A stretch of DNA of 64,000 nt from assembly GCA_944372425.1 (NCBI GenBank), contig CALVZC010000006.1, forward strand, positions 202-64,201, written 5' to 3'. Shown piece after piece: positions 5,024-53,086 of this stretch. The translations under genes were made by a program, and so were the position numbers. Numbering within the stretch: the stretch's first letter is position 1; every line of letters begins with the position of its first letter. This DNA comes from an uncultured Bacilli bacterium. Lineage in GTDB: Bacteria > Bacillota_I > Bacilli_A > RF39 > UBA660. The notes beneath the pieces were generated by a model. The model saw only the letters and a program-made list of their open reading frames with translations, was not told the DNA's origin and did no database searches.

Positions 5024-5677
5024 ATGGGACAAAAAGTTAGTCCAGTTGGACTTAGAATTGGAATTAACAGAAGTTGGGAAGCTAATTGGTATGCTAACAA
5101 AAAAGATTTTAGTAAGTATTTAGAGAATGATTTAAAAATTCGTAAGTTCCTAGAGAAAAAATTAAAAGATGCTGGTGTTAGTTCTATAGAAATTGAAAGA
5201 AATACAAAAAGATGCGAAGTTATAATTCATACTTCAAAGCCTGGTGTTATTATTGGAAAAGGTGGAGAAGAAATTGAAAATTTAAAAAGAGAGATTTCTA
5301 AATTAGTTAATGAAGATATTCAAATTTCAATCGTAGATATTAAAAAGCCTGATTTAGATGCTACTCTTGTTGCAAATAGTATTGCAGCTCAAATTGAAAA
5401 TCGTGCATCTTTTAGAATGGCTCAAAAGAAAGCTATTAGAAATGTTATGAAAGCTGGTGCTAAAGGAGTTAAAACTTTGGTTTCTGGTAGATTAAATGGT
5501 GCAGATATTGCACGTAGTGAAGGATATTCTGAGGGAACAATTCCATTACATACTTTGAGAGCTAATGTTGATTATGCTGTTAGTGAAGCTGATACTACTT
5601 TTGGTAAAATCGGTGTTAAAGTATGGATTTATAAAGGAGAAATTCTTCAAGATAAAAAGGCTAAAGGAGGTAATTAA
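5024..5677 (+). CDS. rpsC: 30S ribosomal protein S3
   Basis: 217 aa. [13 protein letters not shown] start with a KH domain. Confidence 0.97.
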
Positions 5678-5679
5678 TT

Positions 5680-6111
5680 ATGTTAATACCATCAAGAACT
5701 AAATATCGTCGTGTACATAGATTACCTTATGAAGGTCATTCAAAGGGTAATACTGAATTGCACAATGGTCAATATGGTTTAATGGCAGTAGAAGGTGCTT
5801 GGATTACTGCTAATCAAATTGAAGCAGCACGTGTTGCTATGACACGTTATATGAAACGTGGTGGAAAAGTATTTATTAATATTTTCCCACATATGCCTTT
5901 AACTAAAAAGCCACTTGGTACACGTCAAGGAAAAGGTAAAGGTAATGTAGAAGCTTGGGTAGCTGTAGTTAAGTCTGGTAAAATCATGTTTGAAGTATCA
6001 GATGTTACTGAAGAAGTTGCAAGAGAAGCATTACGTCTTGCATCACATAAACTACCAATCAAGACTAAGTTTGTGAGTAAAGAAAATGGTGGTGATATAA
6101 ATGAAGGTTAA
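5680..6111 (+). CDS. rplP: 50S ribosomal protein L16
   Basis: 143 aa. [11 protein letters not shown] start. Confidence 0.97.
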
Positions 6112-6301
6112 TGAAATTAGAAATCTAACCACTGAAGAAATTATTGCTAAAATCAAAGAAACAAAAGAAGAATTATTTAATTTACGTTTTCAACAAGCAA
6201 CTGGTAATTTAGAAAAACCTTCAAGAATCAGAGAATTAAGACATCTTGTTGCAAGACTTAAAACAGTACTTCGTGAAAGAGAATTAAATGAGACTGAATA
6301 G
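6101..6301 (+). CDS. rpmC: 50S ribosomal protein L29
   Basis: 66 aa. ELFNLRFQ motif, overlaps the rplP end. Confidence 0.95.
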
Positions 6302-6309
6302 GAGGGTAT

Positions 6310-6567
6310 ATGGAAAAGACAAATAGAGAATTAGTTGGAAAAGTTGTAAGTTCTGTAAATAATAAAACAATAACTGTATTAGTTGAGACTTATAAAAAAC
6401 ATCCATTATATGGTAAAAGAGTTAAGTCTTCAAAAAAATATGCAGTTCATGATGAAAGCAATAAAGCAAAAGTAGGAGACGTAGTTAGAATTGTTGAAAC
6501 TAAGCCAATTTCTAAAACTAAAAGATTCTACTTAAAAGAAATAGTAAAGGAAGCAGTTATTTTATAA
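6310..6567 (+). CDS. rpsQ: 30S ribosomal protein S17
   Basis: 85 aa. Operon position and the KTITVLVE...HPLYGK motif. Confidence 0.95.
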
Positions 6568-6591
6568 CTCTTAGGTGAAGGAGGATTAATT

Positions 6592-6960
6592 ATGATTCAA
6601 CAAGAAAGTCGTTTGAAAGTTGCTGACAATTCAGGTGCTAGAGAATTATTAGTAATTAGAGTACTTGGTGGAAGCAAAGTTAAAACTGGTAATATCGGTG
6701 ACATAGTTGTTGGTACGATTAAAAATGCCACACCTAATGGAACTGTAAAAAAAGGAAAAGTTGTTAAAGCTGTAATTGTTAGAACAACATTTGGATTAAG
6801 AAGAGAAGATGGTTCTTATATTAAATTTGATGATAATGCTTGTGTTATTATTAAAGATGATAAGAGTCCAGTAGGAACTCGTATTTTTGGCCCTGTAGCT
6901 AGAGAACTTCGTGATAAAGATTTTATGAAGATTGTATCACTAGCTAAGGAAGTACTATAG
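6592..6960 (+). CDS. rplN: 50S ribosomal protein L14
   Basis: 122 aa. [16 protein letters not shown] start. Confidence 0.98.
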
Positions 6961-6969
6961 GAGGATATT

Positions 6970-7275
6970 ATGAACTTAAAAGTAGGAGATAAAGTTATAG
7001 TAATTGCTGGATCTAGTAAGGGTAAAGAAGGTAAGATTACAAAAGTTTTAAGAGCTGAAAATAGAGTTATAGTTGAAGGATGCAATATAGTTAAAAAACA
7101 TAAAAAAGGTAATGGGCAAGAAACAGGAGGTATTCTTGAAACTGAAGCTCCAATTCATGCTTCTAACGTTATGATTATTGACCCTAAGACTAAAAAGAGA
7201 ACTAGAATAGGGCATACTATAGAAAAAGATAAGAAAGTTAGAGTAGCTAAGAAATCTAACGAAAAGATTGATTAG
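6970..7275 (+). CDS. rplX: 50S ribosomal protein L24
   Basis: 101 aa. KVGDKV...G.KGK KOW motif. Confidence 0.95.
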
Positions 7276-7294
7276 TGAAAGGAGGGATTAATTT

Positions 7295-7834
7295 ATGAAC
7301 CGCCTAAAAGAAAAATATTTAAATGAAATCATTCCAAGTTTAATGAAAAAACATAATTATAAAACTGTTATGGAAGTTCCTAAGTTAGAGAAAATCGTTA
7401 TTAATATGGGTGTTGGTGATGCTACTGGTAATTCTAAATTATTAGATGCAGCAGTAAAAGATCTTGAAGTTATTTCAGGACAAAAACCAGTTGTTACAAA
7501 AGCAAAAAAGTCTATTGCTGGATTTAAAGTAAGAGAAGGTCAATCAATCGGTTGTAAGGTTACTTTAAGAGGTGACAATATGTATAACTTTATGGATAAG
7601 TTAGTTTCAATTGGTTTACCTCGTGTTCGTGATTTTAGAGGTGTTTCACCTAAAGCTTTTGATGGTAGAGGTAATTACACTTTGGGAATTAAGGAACAAT
7701 TAATATTTTCAGAAATAGAATATGATAATGTTGTTAAAGTACGTGGAATGGATATTGTATTTGTAACAACTGCAAAATCTAATGAAGAAGCTTATGATTT
7801 ATTAAGTGAACTTGGAATTCCATTTAGAAAGTAA
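7295..7834 (+). CDS. rplE: 50S ribosomal protein L5
   Basis: 179 aa. MNRLKEKY start and operon position. Confidence 0.97.
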
Positions 7835-48331: not shown

Positions 48332-48922
48332 ATGGAAAAAGATCGAAAAACAAAAGTTTTGGCTGTAATAGCAATAATCATAGCAGTAGTTAGTTTAACT
48401 ATTGGTTTTGCAGCATTTAGTACCACATTGTCAATTGATGGTACAGGAGATGTTAAGTCATCTTCATGGAAGGTAAGGTTTGAAAATTTACAACCTGTTC
48501 AAAGGGTAGGTACGGCAGTAGAAACAACTGCACCAACAATTAATACTAATGATACAACTATTAGTAATTTTGATGTAAGTTTCACAACTCCAGGAGACTC
48601 AGTTAGTTATACATTTGATATAGCTAATAAAGGAACATTTGATGCTGAGATTACTAGTATAAATATTCCAACACCTACATGTCAAGGAACAGGTACAAAC
48701 GCTGAACAAGATGCTACTAATGTATGTAATAATTTAGAGTATAAGCTAACTTATACTGATGGTGGAGCACCTTTAGCACAAACTGATACTTTAAACAAAG
48801 GTGAAAAAAAGAATGTTACACTTACTTTAACGTATAAAGATACTATTGGTGAAGCAGAACTTCCACAAGATAATGTTGACATTAATACTTTAGGAATTAG
48901 CATTGTTTATTCACAAAGATAG
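48332..48922 (+). CDS. Small secreted protein with a TasA/SipW-type signal region (cassette 2 cargo)
   Basis: 196 aa. IGFAAFSTTLSIDGTGDV after the h-region, and PGDSVSYTFDIANKGTFDA. Paralog of 27190..27705, with a Cys-flanked insert. Confidence 0.75.
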   Translation: MEKDRKTKVLAVIAIIIAVVSLTIGFAAFSTTLSIDGTGDVKSSSWKVRFENLQPVQRVGTAVETTAPTINTNDTTISNFDVSFTTPGDSVSYTFDIANKGTFDAEITSINIPTPTCQGTGTNAEQDATNVCNNLEYKLTYTDGGAPLAQTDTLNKGEKKNVTLTLTYKDTIGEAELPQDNVDINTLGISIVYSQR

Positions 48923-48935
48923 ATAATTGTAATAA

Positions 48936-48966
48936 AAAAGTACAGTTATTTTATAACTGTACTTTT
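48936..48966 (+). terminator. Strong hairpin after the cargo gene (terminator/attenuator)
   Basis: aaaagtacagttat/ataactgtactttt, a perfect 14-bp stem. Confidence 0.6.
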
Positions 48967-48996
48967 AAATATATAAGGCATTTATTGGGGTAAAAT

Positions 48997-50130
48997 ATGA
49001 AACAAAGTGAAAAAAATATATTAATTATTGAATTTATTTTTATGGCAATACTTATTTTAAATGCTTTCTTATTTAGAATTGAAAATACTATTCTGATAAG
49101 TATTTTTCTGTTGATTTTTTTAATAATATCTATTGAAGTTTTGGGTTATGAAAAAGATAGACATCGCTATAAAAAAGATGGTATTTTACTTGGGATTATT
49201 TTTGCATCAGGTTTTCAAATATTTATATATTTATTAGGGCTTATAACAGGATTCTTAGAAAATGGATATAGCTTAAAACTAATTAATATTTTTAGAAATA
49301 CTTTACCAAATTTAATACTAATAATAATAACAGAATTATTTCGTTACCAACTTATAACAAAAAGTCAGAAAAGAAAATCATTAAAACTATTAACTACAAT
49401 ATTATTTATTGTGTTAGATATTGTTATTATGATTCCTTTGTATAACTTATATGATTCTAGAAATTTTATTGAGTTTTTATCTATTATTGTTATTCCAAGT
49501 ATCTCAAAAAATATATTATTTACTTATTTTATATTAAAATTTGGATATTTAACTAATATATGCTATAGAGTAATAATGGAACTAACAATTTATATAGTTC
49601 CTATTTTACCGAATATTAATATTTATTTAGATTCAGTTTTTAAGTTTACTTTTCCAATTATTATATTAATGTGTTTACAAAAAATATTAAACGAAAAAAA
49701 GGATATAGAAGTAAGAAAACCTAAAATTTTAAAAATAGTTGATGTCTTTGTTACTTTATTTTTGTTAATTGTTGTATTTTTAACTAGTGGTATTTTTAGT
49801 CATTATGCACTAGTAATAGGATCAGATTCAATGAATCCAAACATAAATAAAGGAGATATAGTTATTGTTAAAAAAATTAAATCTGAGCAAATTGAAAATA
49901 TTGAAGTTGGAGATATTTTAGTATTCAACATGAGAAACAAAGTAGTAGTACACAGAGTACAGAAAATAAATGATAATAATAACAGGATATCGTTTATAAC
50001 AAAAGGTGATAACAATATTGATGTAGATAATTGGGTTGTTAACGAAAATGATGTTATAGGTATAGTAACTGCAAAAATACCAATAGTTGGTTATCCTACT
50101 GTATGGTTAAATGAAATGATAGGAGGATGA
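48997..50130 (+). CDS. Polytopic membrane domain fused to an ER/archaeal-type (SipW-like) signal peptidase I
   Basis: 377 aa. About 8 TM segments, then GSDSMNP, VVHRVQ, TKGDNNIDVDNW. Paralog of 27772..28917. Confidence 0.8.
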   Translation: MKQSEKNILIIEFIFMAILILNAFLFRIENTILISIFLLIFLIISIEVLGYEKDRHRYKKDGILLGIIFASGFQIFIYLLGLITGFLENGYSLKLINIFRNTLPNLILIIITELFRYQLITKSQKRKSLKLLTTILFIVLDIVIMIPLYNLYDSRNFIEFLSIIVIPSISKNILFTYFILKFGYLTNICYRVIMELTIYIVPILPNINIYLDSVFKFTFPIIILMCLQKILNEKKDIEVRKPKILKIVDVFVTLFLLIVVFLTSGIFSHYALVIGSDSMNPNINKGDIVIVKKIKSEQIENIEVGDILVFNMRNKVVVHRVQKINDNNNRISFITKGDNNIDVDNWVVNENDVIGIVTAKIPIVGYPTVWLNEMIGG

Positions 50131-50137
50131 AAATAGA

Positions 50138-51244
50138 ATGAGTGATGAGAAGAACATAAAAAATAGTAATCTTTACCAATCTTTTACAAAGAGAAAAAAA
50201 AGAAGTCGCGCAATAATGTTAATTCTTTTATTAATATCTTTGTTCTTAATTATATTATCTTCTGTATTTTTAAAATCATCAATGAATTTTAAAGATAACT
50301 TTATCAATTATAATGAAAAAGGAGATATTAATTATAAAGTATATTTAAAAGATAATGATTATTATGATGAACCATTTTTAGATAAGGGCATGCAATACAT
50401 TGCAAGTTTAATTAATACTATAAATGTTGACTTTAAATATGAAATTAATTCTTCTGATGAATTATCTTATAAATATAAATATAAAATAACTGGTGATTTA
50501 GTAATAACTGAAAAAAATAATCCTAGCAAGGTTTTGTACAAGAATACGGAAATTTTATTAGAAGAAACTGCAAAAGAGATAACTGATAGTTCATTTGTTA
50601 TTAACGAAGATTTAGATATTAATTATGATAAATATAATGAATATGTTGTTGCATTTCAAAAGGATTATTCTTTGAGTGTCGACAGTAATTTAGTGTTGAC
50701 TTTAGCAGTTGAAACTGTTGGAGAGAACAATATATTAGTTAATAATTTTAATAAAAATAGTAATTTAATTGTTTCTGTTCCTTTATCAGAACATACAATA
50801 AGTATTACAACTGATTTAAATTCACTTAATGGATCAGGAATAATTAGAAGCACTGAAATTGTTAAAATAGATAATGTAATGTTATTCGTTTTAAGTATAT
50901 CTTTAGGATTAATTGGTTTAATAATTCTTATATCTATTGTTTATCTTTATCTATCAAAAAATAATAATAACAATCTTTATGAAAAAGAAATAAAGAATAT
51001 TCTTAAAAACTATGATCGTTTAATTGTTAGTAGTAAAGTATTAGATATAGATGAAAATAAATTTCAAAATAAAGTTCGTGTTACAAGTATTGAAGAACTT
51101 ATTGATGTATATGAAACTACAAAGCAACCGATTATTTATTATGAAGTTATTCCAAATGAAAAAAGTTATTTTATAATTATAAATGATGATACATTATATA
51201 AATTAACAATATCAAAAGAATGGTTAGAAGAAAATAAAAAATAA
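50138..51244 (+). CDS. Bitopic membrane protein, cassette 2 third gene (possibly DUF5305-like)
   Basis: 368 aa. Same architecture and shared motifs as 28926..29999. Confidence 0.7.
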   Translation: MSDEKNIKNSNLYQSFTKRKKRSRAIMLILLLISLFLIILSSVFLKSSMNFKDNFINYNEKGDINYKVYLKDNDYYDEPFLDKGMQYIASLINTINVDFKYEINSSDELSYKYKYKITGDLVITEKNNPSKVLYKNTEILLEETAKEITDSSFVINEDLDINYDKYNEYVVAFQKDYSLSVDSNLVLTLAVETVGENNILVNNFNKNSNLIVSVPLSEHTISITTDLNSLNGSGIIRSTEIVKIDNVMLFVLSISLGLIGLIILISIVYLYLSKNNNNNLYEKEIKNILKNYDRLIVSSKVLDIDENKFQNKVRVTSIEELIDVYETTKQPIIYYEVIPNEKSYFIIINDDTLYKLTISKEWLEENKK

Positions 51245-51263
51245 TAATTATTTAGATTGTAGG

Positions 51264-51292
51264 AAAACTCTGGAAAAACTGGAGTTTTTTTT
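51264..51292 (+). terminator. Intrinsic terminator after cassette 2
   Basis: aaaactc/gagtttt stem plus T-run. Confidence 0.45.
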
Positions 51293-51426
51293 CAATAGTA
51301 AATCCTATCATACAATAAAATGACATGTGTATATAAAATACTCATGCTTTTAAATTTTCTAATATAGCTTGCTATAAATATTAGAATATAGTAAAATTTA
51401 ACTATAAAATAGAAAGAAGGTAAAAA

Positions 51427-51483
51427 ATGGGATTTAGGAATACAAACAAATATTCGAGTGGGGGGGGGGGGACACTTTACTAA
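51427..51483 (+). other. 18-codon upstream ORF containing the G12 tract
   Basis: AGAAGG RBS plus ATG. MGFRNTNKYSSGGGGTLY, then a stop. Confidence 0.35.
51460..51471 (+). repeat. Homopolymeric G12 tract
   Basis: 12 consecutive G by hand count, in an otherwise very AT-rich intergenic region. Confidence 0.95.
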
Positions 51484-51603
51484 ATTAGAAGCCTTTACCT
51501 TAAAAGATAAAATAGGTTTAATCATAATATTAAAAGAAATAATGACAATATTCATATATGAAATAAGAAATAAATTGATATATGAAAGGCGTGAAGTAAT
51601 ATT

Positions 51604-52986
51604 ATGATAAAACCAAAAATAATGTTTTTAATAACAATAACAATTTTAGGATTATCAATAGGATATGGAGCTTTTAATGCTGAATTATCGATAAGTGGAG
51701 AAGCAACAGTTAATGGTCAGAGATATAAAGAAGAAATATTAAATGGAACAGAACCGAAGTTAGAAGAACCATTAATAGCAGTAACAATAGAAGATGATGG
51801 AACAGTAAAGAAAGCAGATTTAACAAGTAAGTGGTATAGTTATGAAGAAAAAAGATGGGCAAATGCAGTAATATTAAAAAATGAAAATAAAGAATATGTT
51901 AGTGGAGAAATAATACCAGAAGAAGAAATAGAGAGTTATTTTGTATGGATACCGAAGTATAGTTATAAGTTATGGGATTTAGGAAATTATACAGATTGGA
52001 CAGAAATAGATGAAAATAAAGTACATGCAATAGAAATAAGATTTGGGACAACAAATACTACTGATAGTGTTTCTGGAGAATGTACAACACCAGGAATATC
52101 AGGAGAGAGTGGAAACTGTGAAGTAGGAGATTACATGACCCATCCAGCTTTTTTAGCATTTAATACAACAGGGATGTGGGTAGGAAAGTTTGAAACAGGA
52201 TATAGTGGAGCAACAAGTGTAAGTGAAGCAGAAAAGAACACAACAGAAGTAGATAAAGTAATAGTAAAACCGAATGTATATAGTTGGAGAAGTATACAAT
52301 TATCCAATGCCTTTACAGTAAGTTATAATTATAAAAGAGAGTTAGAATCCCATATGATGAAGAATACTGAATGGGGAGCAGTAGCCTATTTATCACATTC
52401 TATATATGGAATAAATTATGAAATAAGAATAAATAATAATTCTAATTTTTTAACAGGATATGCAGCAACAACAGAAAACGGAAGTGGAAGTACAACAGAT
52501 GTAGCAATGTGGAACACACCTACAGGTTATTTAGCGAGTACAACAGGAAATATAACAGGGATATATGATATGTCAGGAGGATCAGAAGAACATGTAATGG
52601 GAGTAATGAAAGATGCAAATGGGAATTTAATGTCAGGTTATGATTCTACTTCTAATTCAGGATTTAATGGAACATTATATGATGGAAGTAGTATAACAAA
52701 TGGAATAGATTTTCCAGATAGTAAATATTATGATGTTTATAATTACAATAAAAGCCATACTAATTATTCACGAAGAATATTAGGGGATGCAACAGGAGAG
52801 ATGGGACCATTTGATTATGTATCATCATGGTATAATGATAATGCATCTTTCGTTTATCCTTTATCCCCTTGGTTCGACCGTGGGGGCCACTATTTCGATC
52901 GTTCTGGAGCTGGTGCGTTCTTTTTCGACTACTACTACGGGCATGCTTACAGAACCATTTCTTTCCGTTTGGTTTTGTGCATATAG
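51604..52986 (+). CDS. Secreted protein with a SipW-type signal region and a C-terminal FGE/C-type-lectin-like domain
   Basis: 460 aa. IGYGAFNAELSISGEATV after the h-region. GIYDMSGG, RGG and SFRLV motifs, typical of the FGE-sulfatase / CLec fold. Confidence 0.75.
   Translation: MIKPKIMFLITITILGLSIGYGAFNAELSISGEATVNGQRYKEEILNGTEPKLEEPLIAVTIEDDGTVKKADLTSKWYSYEEKRWANAVILKNENKEYVSGEIIPEEEIESYFVWIPKYSYKLWDLGNYTDWTEIDENKVHAIEIRFGTTNTTDSVSGECTTPGISGESGNCEVGDYMTHPAFLAFNTTGMWVGKFETGYSGATSVSEAEKNTTEVDKVIVKPNVYSWRSIQLSNAFTVSYNYKRELESHMMKNTEWGAVAYLSHSIYGINYEIRINNNSNFLTGYAATTENGSGSTTDVAMWNTPTGYLASTTGNITGIYDMSGGSEEHVMGVMKDANGNLMSGYDSTSNSGFNGTLYDGSSITNGIDFPDSKYYDVYNYNKSHTNYSRRILGDATGEMGPFDYVSSWYNDNASFVYPLSPWFDRGGHYFDRSGAGAFFFDYYYGHAYRTISFRLVLCI
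52848..52980 (+). other. Adenine-depleted, GC-rich 3' coding tract (candidate DGR variable region)
   Basis: Over 52861-52980 I count 16 A of 120 nt and about 59 G+C, against roughly 45-50% A just upstream. Encodes HYFD...FFFDYYYGHAY. Confidence 0.45.
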
Positions 52987-53006
52987 TTTTTCCACTTGTG
53001 GAAAAA
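52987..53006 (+). other. Hairpin immediately after the stop codon
   Basis: tttttcca(c)/(g)tggaaaaa, an 8-9 bp stem with a 2-4 nt loop. Confidence 0.6.
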
Positions 53007-53086
53007 CTTAACCCTGATCTTTGTGGTTTAATGAATAAACAAAGTATATAGATAGACAGATTTAATAGTAGAAGAATATTTTAATT

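Follow-up and report, generated by a model that had tools for sequence, protein, structure and literature searches.

Bacteria have two classic pre-programmed routes to surface variation: phase variation at homopolymeric tracts and hypermutation by diversity-generating retroelements (DGRs). We describe here a locus at which both may act on one gene. It lies in a 64,000-nucleotide stretch of DNA from an uncultured Bacilli bacterium (contig CALVZC010000006.1; this 64-kb stretch is hereafter called the window), where a run of 12 G residues (G12) sits inside a short upstream open reading frame (uORF) just ahead of a gene for a 460-amino-acid (aa) secreted protein. A preliminary description, made from the letters of this DNA, had proposed that the tract toggles translation of the gene. 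To our knowledge, homopolymer phase variation and DGR hypermutation have not previously been described on the same genes, and a literature search on simple-sequence-repeat switches that individually gate DGR targets found no report.

Phase-variable G tracts of Neisseria range from G9 to G21 (PMC5953494). In pilC, and in genes with internal G tracts such as pglA and lgtA, 9 to 20 G near the 5' end switch the gene ON and OFF by slipped-strand frameshifting (PMC5953494; Jonsson et al. 1991, cited therein). Pilin-type paralogues of the 460-aa gene (L032, P0087 and P0067) resemble pilC, as they hold their tract in the prepilin leader. Unlike the Neisseria tracts, the window tract lies outside the gene it would control, in a separate uORF that only in its ON frame ends on that gene's start codon, and the host is not a proteobacterium but a low-GC, uncultured member of the gut Bacilli.

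Translational coupling of the iraD, mgtA-type and RNA-phage kind combines a stop/start overlap with a sequestered downstream start that is opened by upstream translation. Coupled leaders are represented by the E. coli iraD leader ORF, the Salmonella mgtA-type leaders and the ATGA junction of the RNA-phage coat and lysis genes (PMC5574718, PMC8092293, PMC9955659). The window uORF shares with them the overlap and a start codon that is predicted to be sequestered. The input differs: those systems respond to regulators, metabolites or stalled ribosomes, whereas here the frame of the uORF would be set by the length of the DNA, which would change heritably and reversibly. Haemophilus influenzae lex2A/lex2B was considered as a coupled phase-variable precedent and was not used, only the lex2A tetranucleotide repeat having been confirmed. 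A variable G repeat (6-16 G) is also found in the leader of the Helicobacter pylori tlpB-hp0102 operon, where the small RNA (sRNA) RepG acts in post-transcriptional control of this surface-related operon (PMC8295292). That control is graded, sRNA-dependent and independent of reading frame, whereas the window tract lies in a translated uORF and would be expected to act as an ON/OFF switch with a period of three.

Small low-GC genomes also harbor the multi-copy surface proteins of Mycoplasma (vlp, vsa and similar families), every member of which is controlled by a homopolymer of its own, so that the family as a whole is expressed in combinatorial ON/OFF patterns. There, the switching repeats (poly-A among others) lie in promoter spacers and variety arises from repeat number; in the family described here the tract is poly-G and is found in a uORF, a signal peptide or a promoter, and variety arises from a retroelement. 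As in known DGR targets (Mtd of Bordetella phage, Treponema TvpA, Legionella LdtA and those of gut bacteria), the 460-aa gene has a C-terminal variable region with adenine-specific differences, and as in known DGRs, a hairpin follows the variable region, with bAvd and a reverse transcriptase in a related genome. It is unlike those targets in that the window is without a template repeat or reverse transcriptase, making the gene a remote target.

The tract, at 51460-51471, is the sole G or C homopolymer of six or more residues in the window, both by reading of the sequence and by script. The G+C content of the window is 25.7%, and about 2e-5 G or C runs of this length are expected from composition; the coordinates first given for the tract were exact, and its improbability by chance was borne out. 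The uORF likewise behaved as the preliminary description had stated: it has a ribosome-binding site of its own, starts at ATG 51427 and, in the G12 allele, ends after 18 codons at the TAA at 51481-51483. Tracts of G6 to G17 were then simulated. The frame had been said to open with 11 or 14 G, and this was reproduced for those lengths and found likewise for 8 and 17; the resulting uORF of about 60 codons ends at TGA 51605-51607, which overlaps the ATG of the 460-aa gene (51604-51606) as ATGA. In the two remaining registers the uORF stops 115-120 nucleotides (nt) upstream of that ATG, at 51481-51488. We refer to the open register as ON and to the other two as OFF. Twelve residues exceed the roughly 8-9 from which homopolymers are hypermutable, and the tract lies inside a translated frame: it will be translated because it begins only 33 nt downstream of a start codon with a near-consensus Shine-Dalgarno (SD) sequence. 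A change of one unit in the tract would thus be expected to alter expression of the 460-aa gene.

The explanation we favor, and regard as probable, is that a self-contained, phase-variable module, with G12 as its switch, gates expression of a DGR-diversified gene by uORF coupling. Slipped-strand mispairing during replication would alter the number of G residues. With 8, 11 or 14 G, ribosomes from the strong uORF SD would run to the TGA, melt on their way an 18-bp stem that otherwise would bury the main AUG, and terminate on that AUG, so that translation of the 460-aa gene would follow from termination-reinitiation, from exposure of its start site or from a combination of the two. With other numbers, the 12 found here included, the uORF would end before its ribosomes could ever reach the stem, and the gene would be OFF or low, with its AUG sequestered and no SD other than the weak one that lies far off. 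In the pilin-type paralogues the same tract would act by ordinary in-frame frameshifting.

The tract had been put forward as a slipped-strand substrate whose length should be compared among strains, and it proved to be length-variable, both at this locus and in paralogues; all lengths given here are consensus lengths of assemblies. The syntenic locus was represented by ten independent contigs that share an identical DUF5305 protein. The window carries G12 followed by A (OFF) and L001 carries G11 followed by A (ON), its uORF being annotated as a 59-aa gene that overlaps the next gene. In L002 and L010 the tract is G9 and the A is missing; this net -4 relative to the window puts both in the ON register. 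In L009 the tract stands at the contig end and reads T and then 8 or more G. Paralogues at other chromosomal sites had G10 (L091) and G6 (L093), both OFF. Among the copies found without the uORF peptide as query, three were ON and three OFF, the latter being the window, L091 and L093. A search with the ON-frame peptide yielded 25 clusters of 50-59-aa peptides in public data that differ by 2-4 Gly, which correspond to 3-nt steps of the tract. The loci of ON-frame peptides (L094-L102) showed tracts of G10, G12 and, in L101, G6; the tract was interrupted in L098 (GGGAGGAGGGAG) and lost in L097. This length polymorphism supports a phase-variable tract; the dependence of the 460-aa gene on uORF translation and the rate of switching are inferred. 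Behind the L101 copy (2671-2780), whose G6 tract is in the ON register, the main ORF is cut short by a TGA where the signal peptide is encoded, so that the gene is a pseudogene or the TGA a sequencing error.

RNA folding of the leader gave a minimum free energy of -40.1 kcal/mol (z = -3.06). The dominant element of the predicted fold is the 18-bp stem, 17 of its 18 pairs being Watson-Crick, in which the main AUG has a pairing probability near 1.0; the stem is therefore predicted to sequester the start codon, and we infer that it forms in vivo. The duplex has an energy of -17.7 kcal/mol, compared with -8.5 +/- 1.9 in dinucleotide shuffles, none of which reached it (0/2000). Both OFF stops lie more than 25 nt upstream of the 5' arm. 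This arm is the most conserved stretch of the uORF, with an invariant LIII in the peptide alignment. When compared with the homologous pilin codons of L032 (GCAGTAATAATAATATTA), the uORF arm (GGTTTAATCATAATATTA) shows four differences, all four of which turn a mismatch into a Watson-Crick pair with the start region (from 13 to 17 of 18). Under random placement, four pair-creating changes out of four arise in 5 of 247,860 cases, or about 2e-5. The uORF flanks of the arm are just 53% identical to L032.

The initiation signals of the two frames were compared with each other and across module copies. The uORF SD forms an anti-SD duplex of -10.7 kcal/mol and is near-invariant over 12 module copies, with one-base variants in L098 and L099; it is also kept in the pilin-type L032. 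The 460-aa gene had been described as having no convincing ribosome-binding site, and this held only in part. An SD-like GAAAGG does exist at -20 to -15, with an anti-SD pairing of -9.8 kcal/mol that is near the median of window genes, and it stands 14 nt from the ATG; within the usual SD distance, pairing is weak (-3.5 kcal/mol), and just 22% of 59 genes are as weak or weaker. Since a terminator and then a promoter lie upstream, the tract is placed about 55 nt into the approximately 200-nt leader of a separate transcription unit. The -35 and -10 hexamers and their spacing are kept in aligned module copies elsewhere in the genomes, with TG ahead of the -10 in most. A segment of the uORF SD, AAGGTAAA (51416-51423), is complementary to CTTTACCTT (51494-51502), which comprises Phe-Thr-Leu codons inherited from the pilin motif, and the two pair in the predicted minimum-energy fold; this pairing is a possible second structural layer of the leader.

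The unit of promoter, SD, ATG, poly-G, uORF and ATGA overlap was found in at least seven genomic contexts, with two copies per sample or genome in two instances (L001 and L095 in ERZ28614680; L094 and L100 in GCA_949292255.1). TATT-ATGA-T is kept in all module copies. The ATGA overlap is present in 12 of 12 aligned copies: those in the ON register have it, and so do those in the OFF register once their latent ON frame is read. The ON-frame peptide (MGFRNTNKYSSGGGGHFTKLEAFTLKDKIGLIIIL...) is homologous, in DNA and in protein, to the start of pilin-type paralogues such as the 654-aa L032 (MNNINTNKYSSWGGGHFTKVKG/FTLIELLAVIIILG...), and also P0087 and P0067, whose prepilin leader contains the tract in frame and is followed by a true N_methyl motif. 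In the alignment, promoter, SD and leader are shared and similarity fades beyond. The uORF peptide had no Pfam match at E <= 10, N_methyl (PF07963) included; it has Ala for Gly-1 and Asp for Glu+5 (A-FTLKD), and its hydrophobic helix is broken by Lys and Glu. By homology, then, the uORF is demonstrably a decayed prepilin N-terminus (leader with poly-G plus N-methyl helix) that is no longer a member of N_methyl. Its homology to the prepilin N-terminus ruled out a de novo or designed leader peptide. The stretch ahead of the tract is read in two frames among copies (TNKYSS vs QTNIRV), and variable uORF sites are spread over the three codon positions as 11/9/11; therefore the peptide sequence is not what is conserved.

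A more distant, syntenic orthologue in a related species (L011, 3600-4010) has the 460-aa gene about 45 nt past DUF5305, with the SD GAAAGAGGTG, and is without terminator, promoter, uORF and poly-G. As the L011 gene follows DUF5305 directly, the module is an insertion relative to that arrangement. Judged from these alignments, it is a pilin-type 5' end that was put before SipW-type genes and then spread to the contexts counted above. Scans for the module in Joint Genome Institute (JGI) metagenomes and viral contigs gave 0 matches, and the organism seems to be absent from these collections.

The downstream gene was compared with a related complete metagenome-assembled genome (MAG), OZ006981.1, whose template repeat (L032 5583-5700) served as the reference. 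The variable region of the window gene (about 130 nt, A-poor and GC-rich) mismatches this template repeat at 16 of 32 A positions and at 9 of 99 non-A positions; the variable region of L032 itself mismatches it at 16/32 and 2/99, respectively. On this comparison the 460-aa gene is a DGR target. A search of the window with blastn-short found no template repeat or reverse transcriptase, so the DGR evidence was taken from L032 and the gene is viewed as being targeted remotely, by an element in another part of the genome. The L032 cassette (5583-7644) comprises, in this order, target, variable region, template repeat, 127-aa ORF, bAvd and reverse transcriptase (RVT_1). Its 127-aa ORF matches MutS domain I (E = 1.4e-8), which is unusual within a DGR cassette.

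The 460-aa protein has more than 7900 homologues, with several copies per genome in MAGs of uncultured gut Bacilli/"Tenericutes" from chicken, rabbit, mouse and human samples. An exact look-up of the protein found no record, as expected for a DGR-variable protein. It had no match in Pfam or NCBIfam, and its AlphaFold model had a predicted local distance difference test score (pLDDT) of 36. Paralogue P0087 gave a below-threshold match to FGE-sulfatase (E = 0.0034), and a profile match to the PDB entry 5vf4_A was weak (E = 0.61). The C-terminal ...RGG...SFRLV motif presumably fits a C-type-lectin/FGE-like fold. Table 1 lists the features of the locus.

Table 1. Features in and around the leader of the 460-aa gene (window coordinates)
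Feature	Position	Strand	Details
Intrinsic terminator of the upstream tasA-like/sipW/DUF5305 operon	51261-51292	+	Stem AGGAAAACUCUGG / CUGGAGUUUUUUU, then U run
Module promoter	51369-51397	+	TTGCTA, 17 nt, TAAAAT; from promoter scan, taken alone just a consensus match
Strong SD of uORF	51411-51421	+	AGAAAGAAGGT; 5 nt ahead of ATG 51427
uORF as assembled (G12, OFF register)	51427-51483	+	MGFRNTNKYSSGGGGTLY, then stop
G12 homopolymer, candidate slipped-strand switch	51460-51471	+	Length varies among assemblies and paralogues
Latent ON-frame continuation of uORF	51473-51607	+	HFTKLEAFTLKDKIGLIIILKEIMTIFIYEIRNKLIYERREVIL, then stop; read with 8, 11 or 14 G; TGA overlaps main ATG
5' arm of predicted long-range stem	51515-51532	+	GGUUUAAUCAUAAUAUUA; within ON-frame uORF, past both OFF stops
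Weak, distant SD-like GAAAGG of 460-aa gene	51584-51589	+	Homologous to GAAAGAGGTG in module-less L011
3' arm of predicted stem	51597-51614	+	UAAUAUUAUGAUAAAACC; holds main AUG 51604-51606 and uORF stop
460-aa secreted protein gene	51604-52986	+	SipW-type N-terminal signal MIKPKIMFLITITILGLSIGYGAFNAELS...; multi-copy family
DGR variable region, 3' end of 460-aa gene	52852-52982	+	From comparison with L032 template repeat
Hairpin	52986-53007	+	GTTTTTCCAC-TT-GTGGAAAAAC; directly past stop codon; found after each variable region, not after the template repeat

The decay of the uORF invites the reading that tract and uORF are a mere relic of the pilin-type 5' end, the module serving as a promoter only, with GAAAGG driving the 460-aa gene and length variation being neutral. 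The uORF is demonstrably derived from a prepilin N-terminus, an SD-like element of median strength does stand ahead of the main ATG, the openness of the ON frame is statistically uninformative, and tracts are short in L093 and L101, interrupted in L098 and lost in L097. Nevertheless, an unbroken G9-G12 persists in most copies at 25% GC, all copies retain the ATGA overlap, the four changes in the 5' arm all add pairing with the start region, and the SD is weaker than in the module-less L011, and we consider a relic unlikely. Nor do we give much credence to an effect of the tract at the RNA level, independent of frame, in which pairing with a C/U-rich sRNA, leader structure or stability, or slippage of RNA polymerase would bring about graded control. 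The tract does lie within the 5' leader, and the gradual control of H. pylori tlpB through RepG is a precedent (PMC8295292). Against it, C runs of five or more are absent from the window, which leaves no obvious nearby partner, and an Rfam scan of the leader had no match; moreover, the position of the tract behind the uORF start codon and SD means that it is translated, ON-frame alleles differ by multiples of three, and in L032, P0087 and P0067 the tract is in frame inside coding sequence.

Two further readings carry even less weight. The phase-variable product could be the 59-aa peptide itself, as a small pilin-like or membrane peptide, with the downstream gene independent of it. The peptide is annotated as a gene in the 25 clusters and its C-terminal two thirds are fairly conserved (75% mean column identity), but with no match to N_methyl or other Pfam families, its substituted Gly-1 and Glu5, its broken helix, the even spread of variable sites over codon positions and an N-terminal part that is in two different frames among copies, this is very improbable. 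That G12 is a sequencing or assembly artefact is scarcely credible. Poly-G is a known product of two-colour Illumina chemistry and many contigs end at or near the tract, but the tract is internal to its contig with unique sequence on both sides, recurs at the same position in independent assemblies of several studies and in paralogues, and matches Gly codons of the homologous in-frame pilin leader.

Several points weigh against uORF-coupled switching as we favor it. All of the support is at the level of sequence or prediction, and because homopolymers are error-prone in Illumina and nanopore assemblies, the ON/OFF call of any single assembly is uncertain, that of G12 here included. The copies at L094-L102 are ON by construction, since they were retrieved by means of ON-frame peptides. 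As the SD-like GAAAGG lies 14 nt upstream of the main ATG, some independent initiation is possible. The energy of the stem ranks second among 59 gene starts of the window (mean -11.4, standard deviation 2.7 kcal/mol), and for this reason the stem is described as strong and is not called unique. Compensatory covariation in the stem was absent among the module copies, which are 91% identical and in which the 3' arm is coding, so that support from covariation is impossible. Two candidate lines of evidence were discarded. Contig breaks near the tract were rejected as a sign of length heterogeneity, a multi-copy repeat explaining them at least as well, and the stop-free ON frame has no power as a sign of selection, with 0.9 stops expected and a probability of 0.41 of finding none.

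A wider survey covered 80 loci from other species (L011-L090), in which runs of seven or more on the gene strand were counted. Seventeen G runs and 0 C runs were found on the sense strand of family genes, at the 5' ends or promoters of homologues; this bias to G may stem from common descent or from Gly codons being favored over Pro codons. Some G runs lie in signal peptides or leaders, in frame in L017, L021, L032 and L060 and out of frame in L024, L037 and L074. Others stand in promoter-like sequences of the form TTGACAt-G10 to G13-TATCATGATAAAAT (L022 3587-3640, L029 3065-3110, L030 3371-3420, L077 3381-3430 and L079 19-70) or, in L068 (3912-3950), TTGACA-N9-G10-TATGAT. The uORF placement seen in the window makes up a third class. 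Poly-G between TTGACA and -10-like hexamers suggests promoter-spacer phase variation in these species. Related species appear to reach the same end by poly-G in signal peptides or promoter spacers. Downstream of the promoter-type tracts come two palindromes (ATGATAAAATTATCAT, CATAGGAAACTATG) and a run of T, and the spacing of these tracts to -10-like hexamers is ambiguous. Eight clusters (P0030, P0037, P0039, P0040, P0042, P0043, P0049 and P0081) contain proteins of 589-622 aa that begin MIIAIPAV... just inside the prepilin helix, and these resemble what gene prediction would give for poly-G pilin-type alleles in the OFF register.

Taken more broadly, the module may be a portable cassette, consisting of promoter, SD, a poly-G uORF of prepilin-signal origin, an evolved anti-start stem and ATGA, that was copied to many loci of small gut Bacilli genomes, each copy gating one DGR paralogue. 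Poly-G slippage would then provide combinatorial ON/OFF expression and the retroelement would provide binding specificity. We hold this picture tentatively, with slightly more doubt than belief. If true, uncultured gut Bacilli with reduced genomes run a large DGR-diversified family, several members per genome, under individual stochastic switches, which adds an on/off layer to a hypervariable surface-protein family. The locus would also be a natural DNA-length switch that is read through uORF-dependent translational coupling and not through a frameshift within the gene. The ON/OFF state would hinge on homopolymer lengths that are unreliable in assemblies, and so would annotations, among them the 59-aa "genes" and the shortened MIIAIPAV... 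proteins.

The operon upstream of the module (48332-51244) encodes a weakly TasA/camelysin-like protein, a SipW-type signal peptidase and the DUF5305 protein. Its terminator is an A-tract/U-tract hairpin with an RNA fold of -14.6 kcal/mol, and was not flagged by a consensus scan because it has too few G-C pairs. Elsewhere in the window, positions 1400-1499 match the Rfam S10-Clostridia ribosomal-protein leader at 35.4 bits, compared with a gathering score of 35.1, which is consistent with a Firmicutes-type chromosome.

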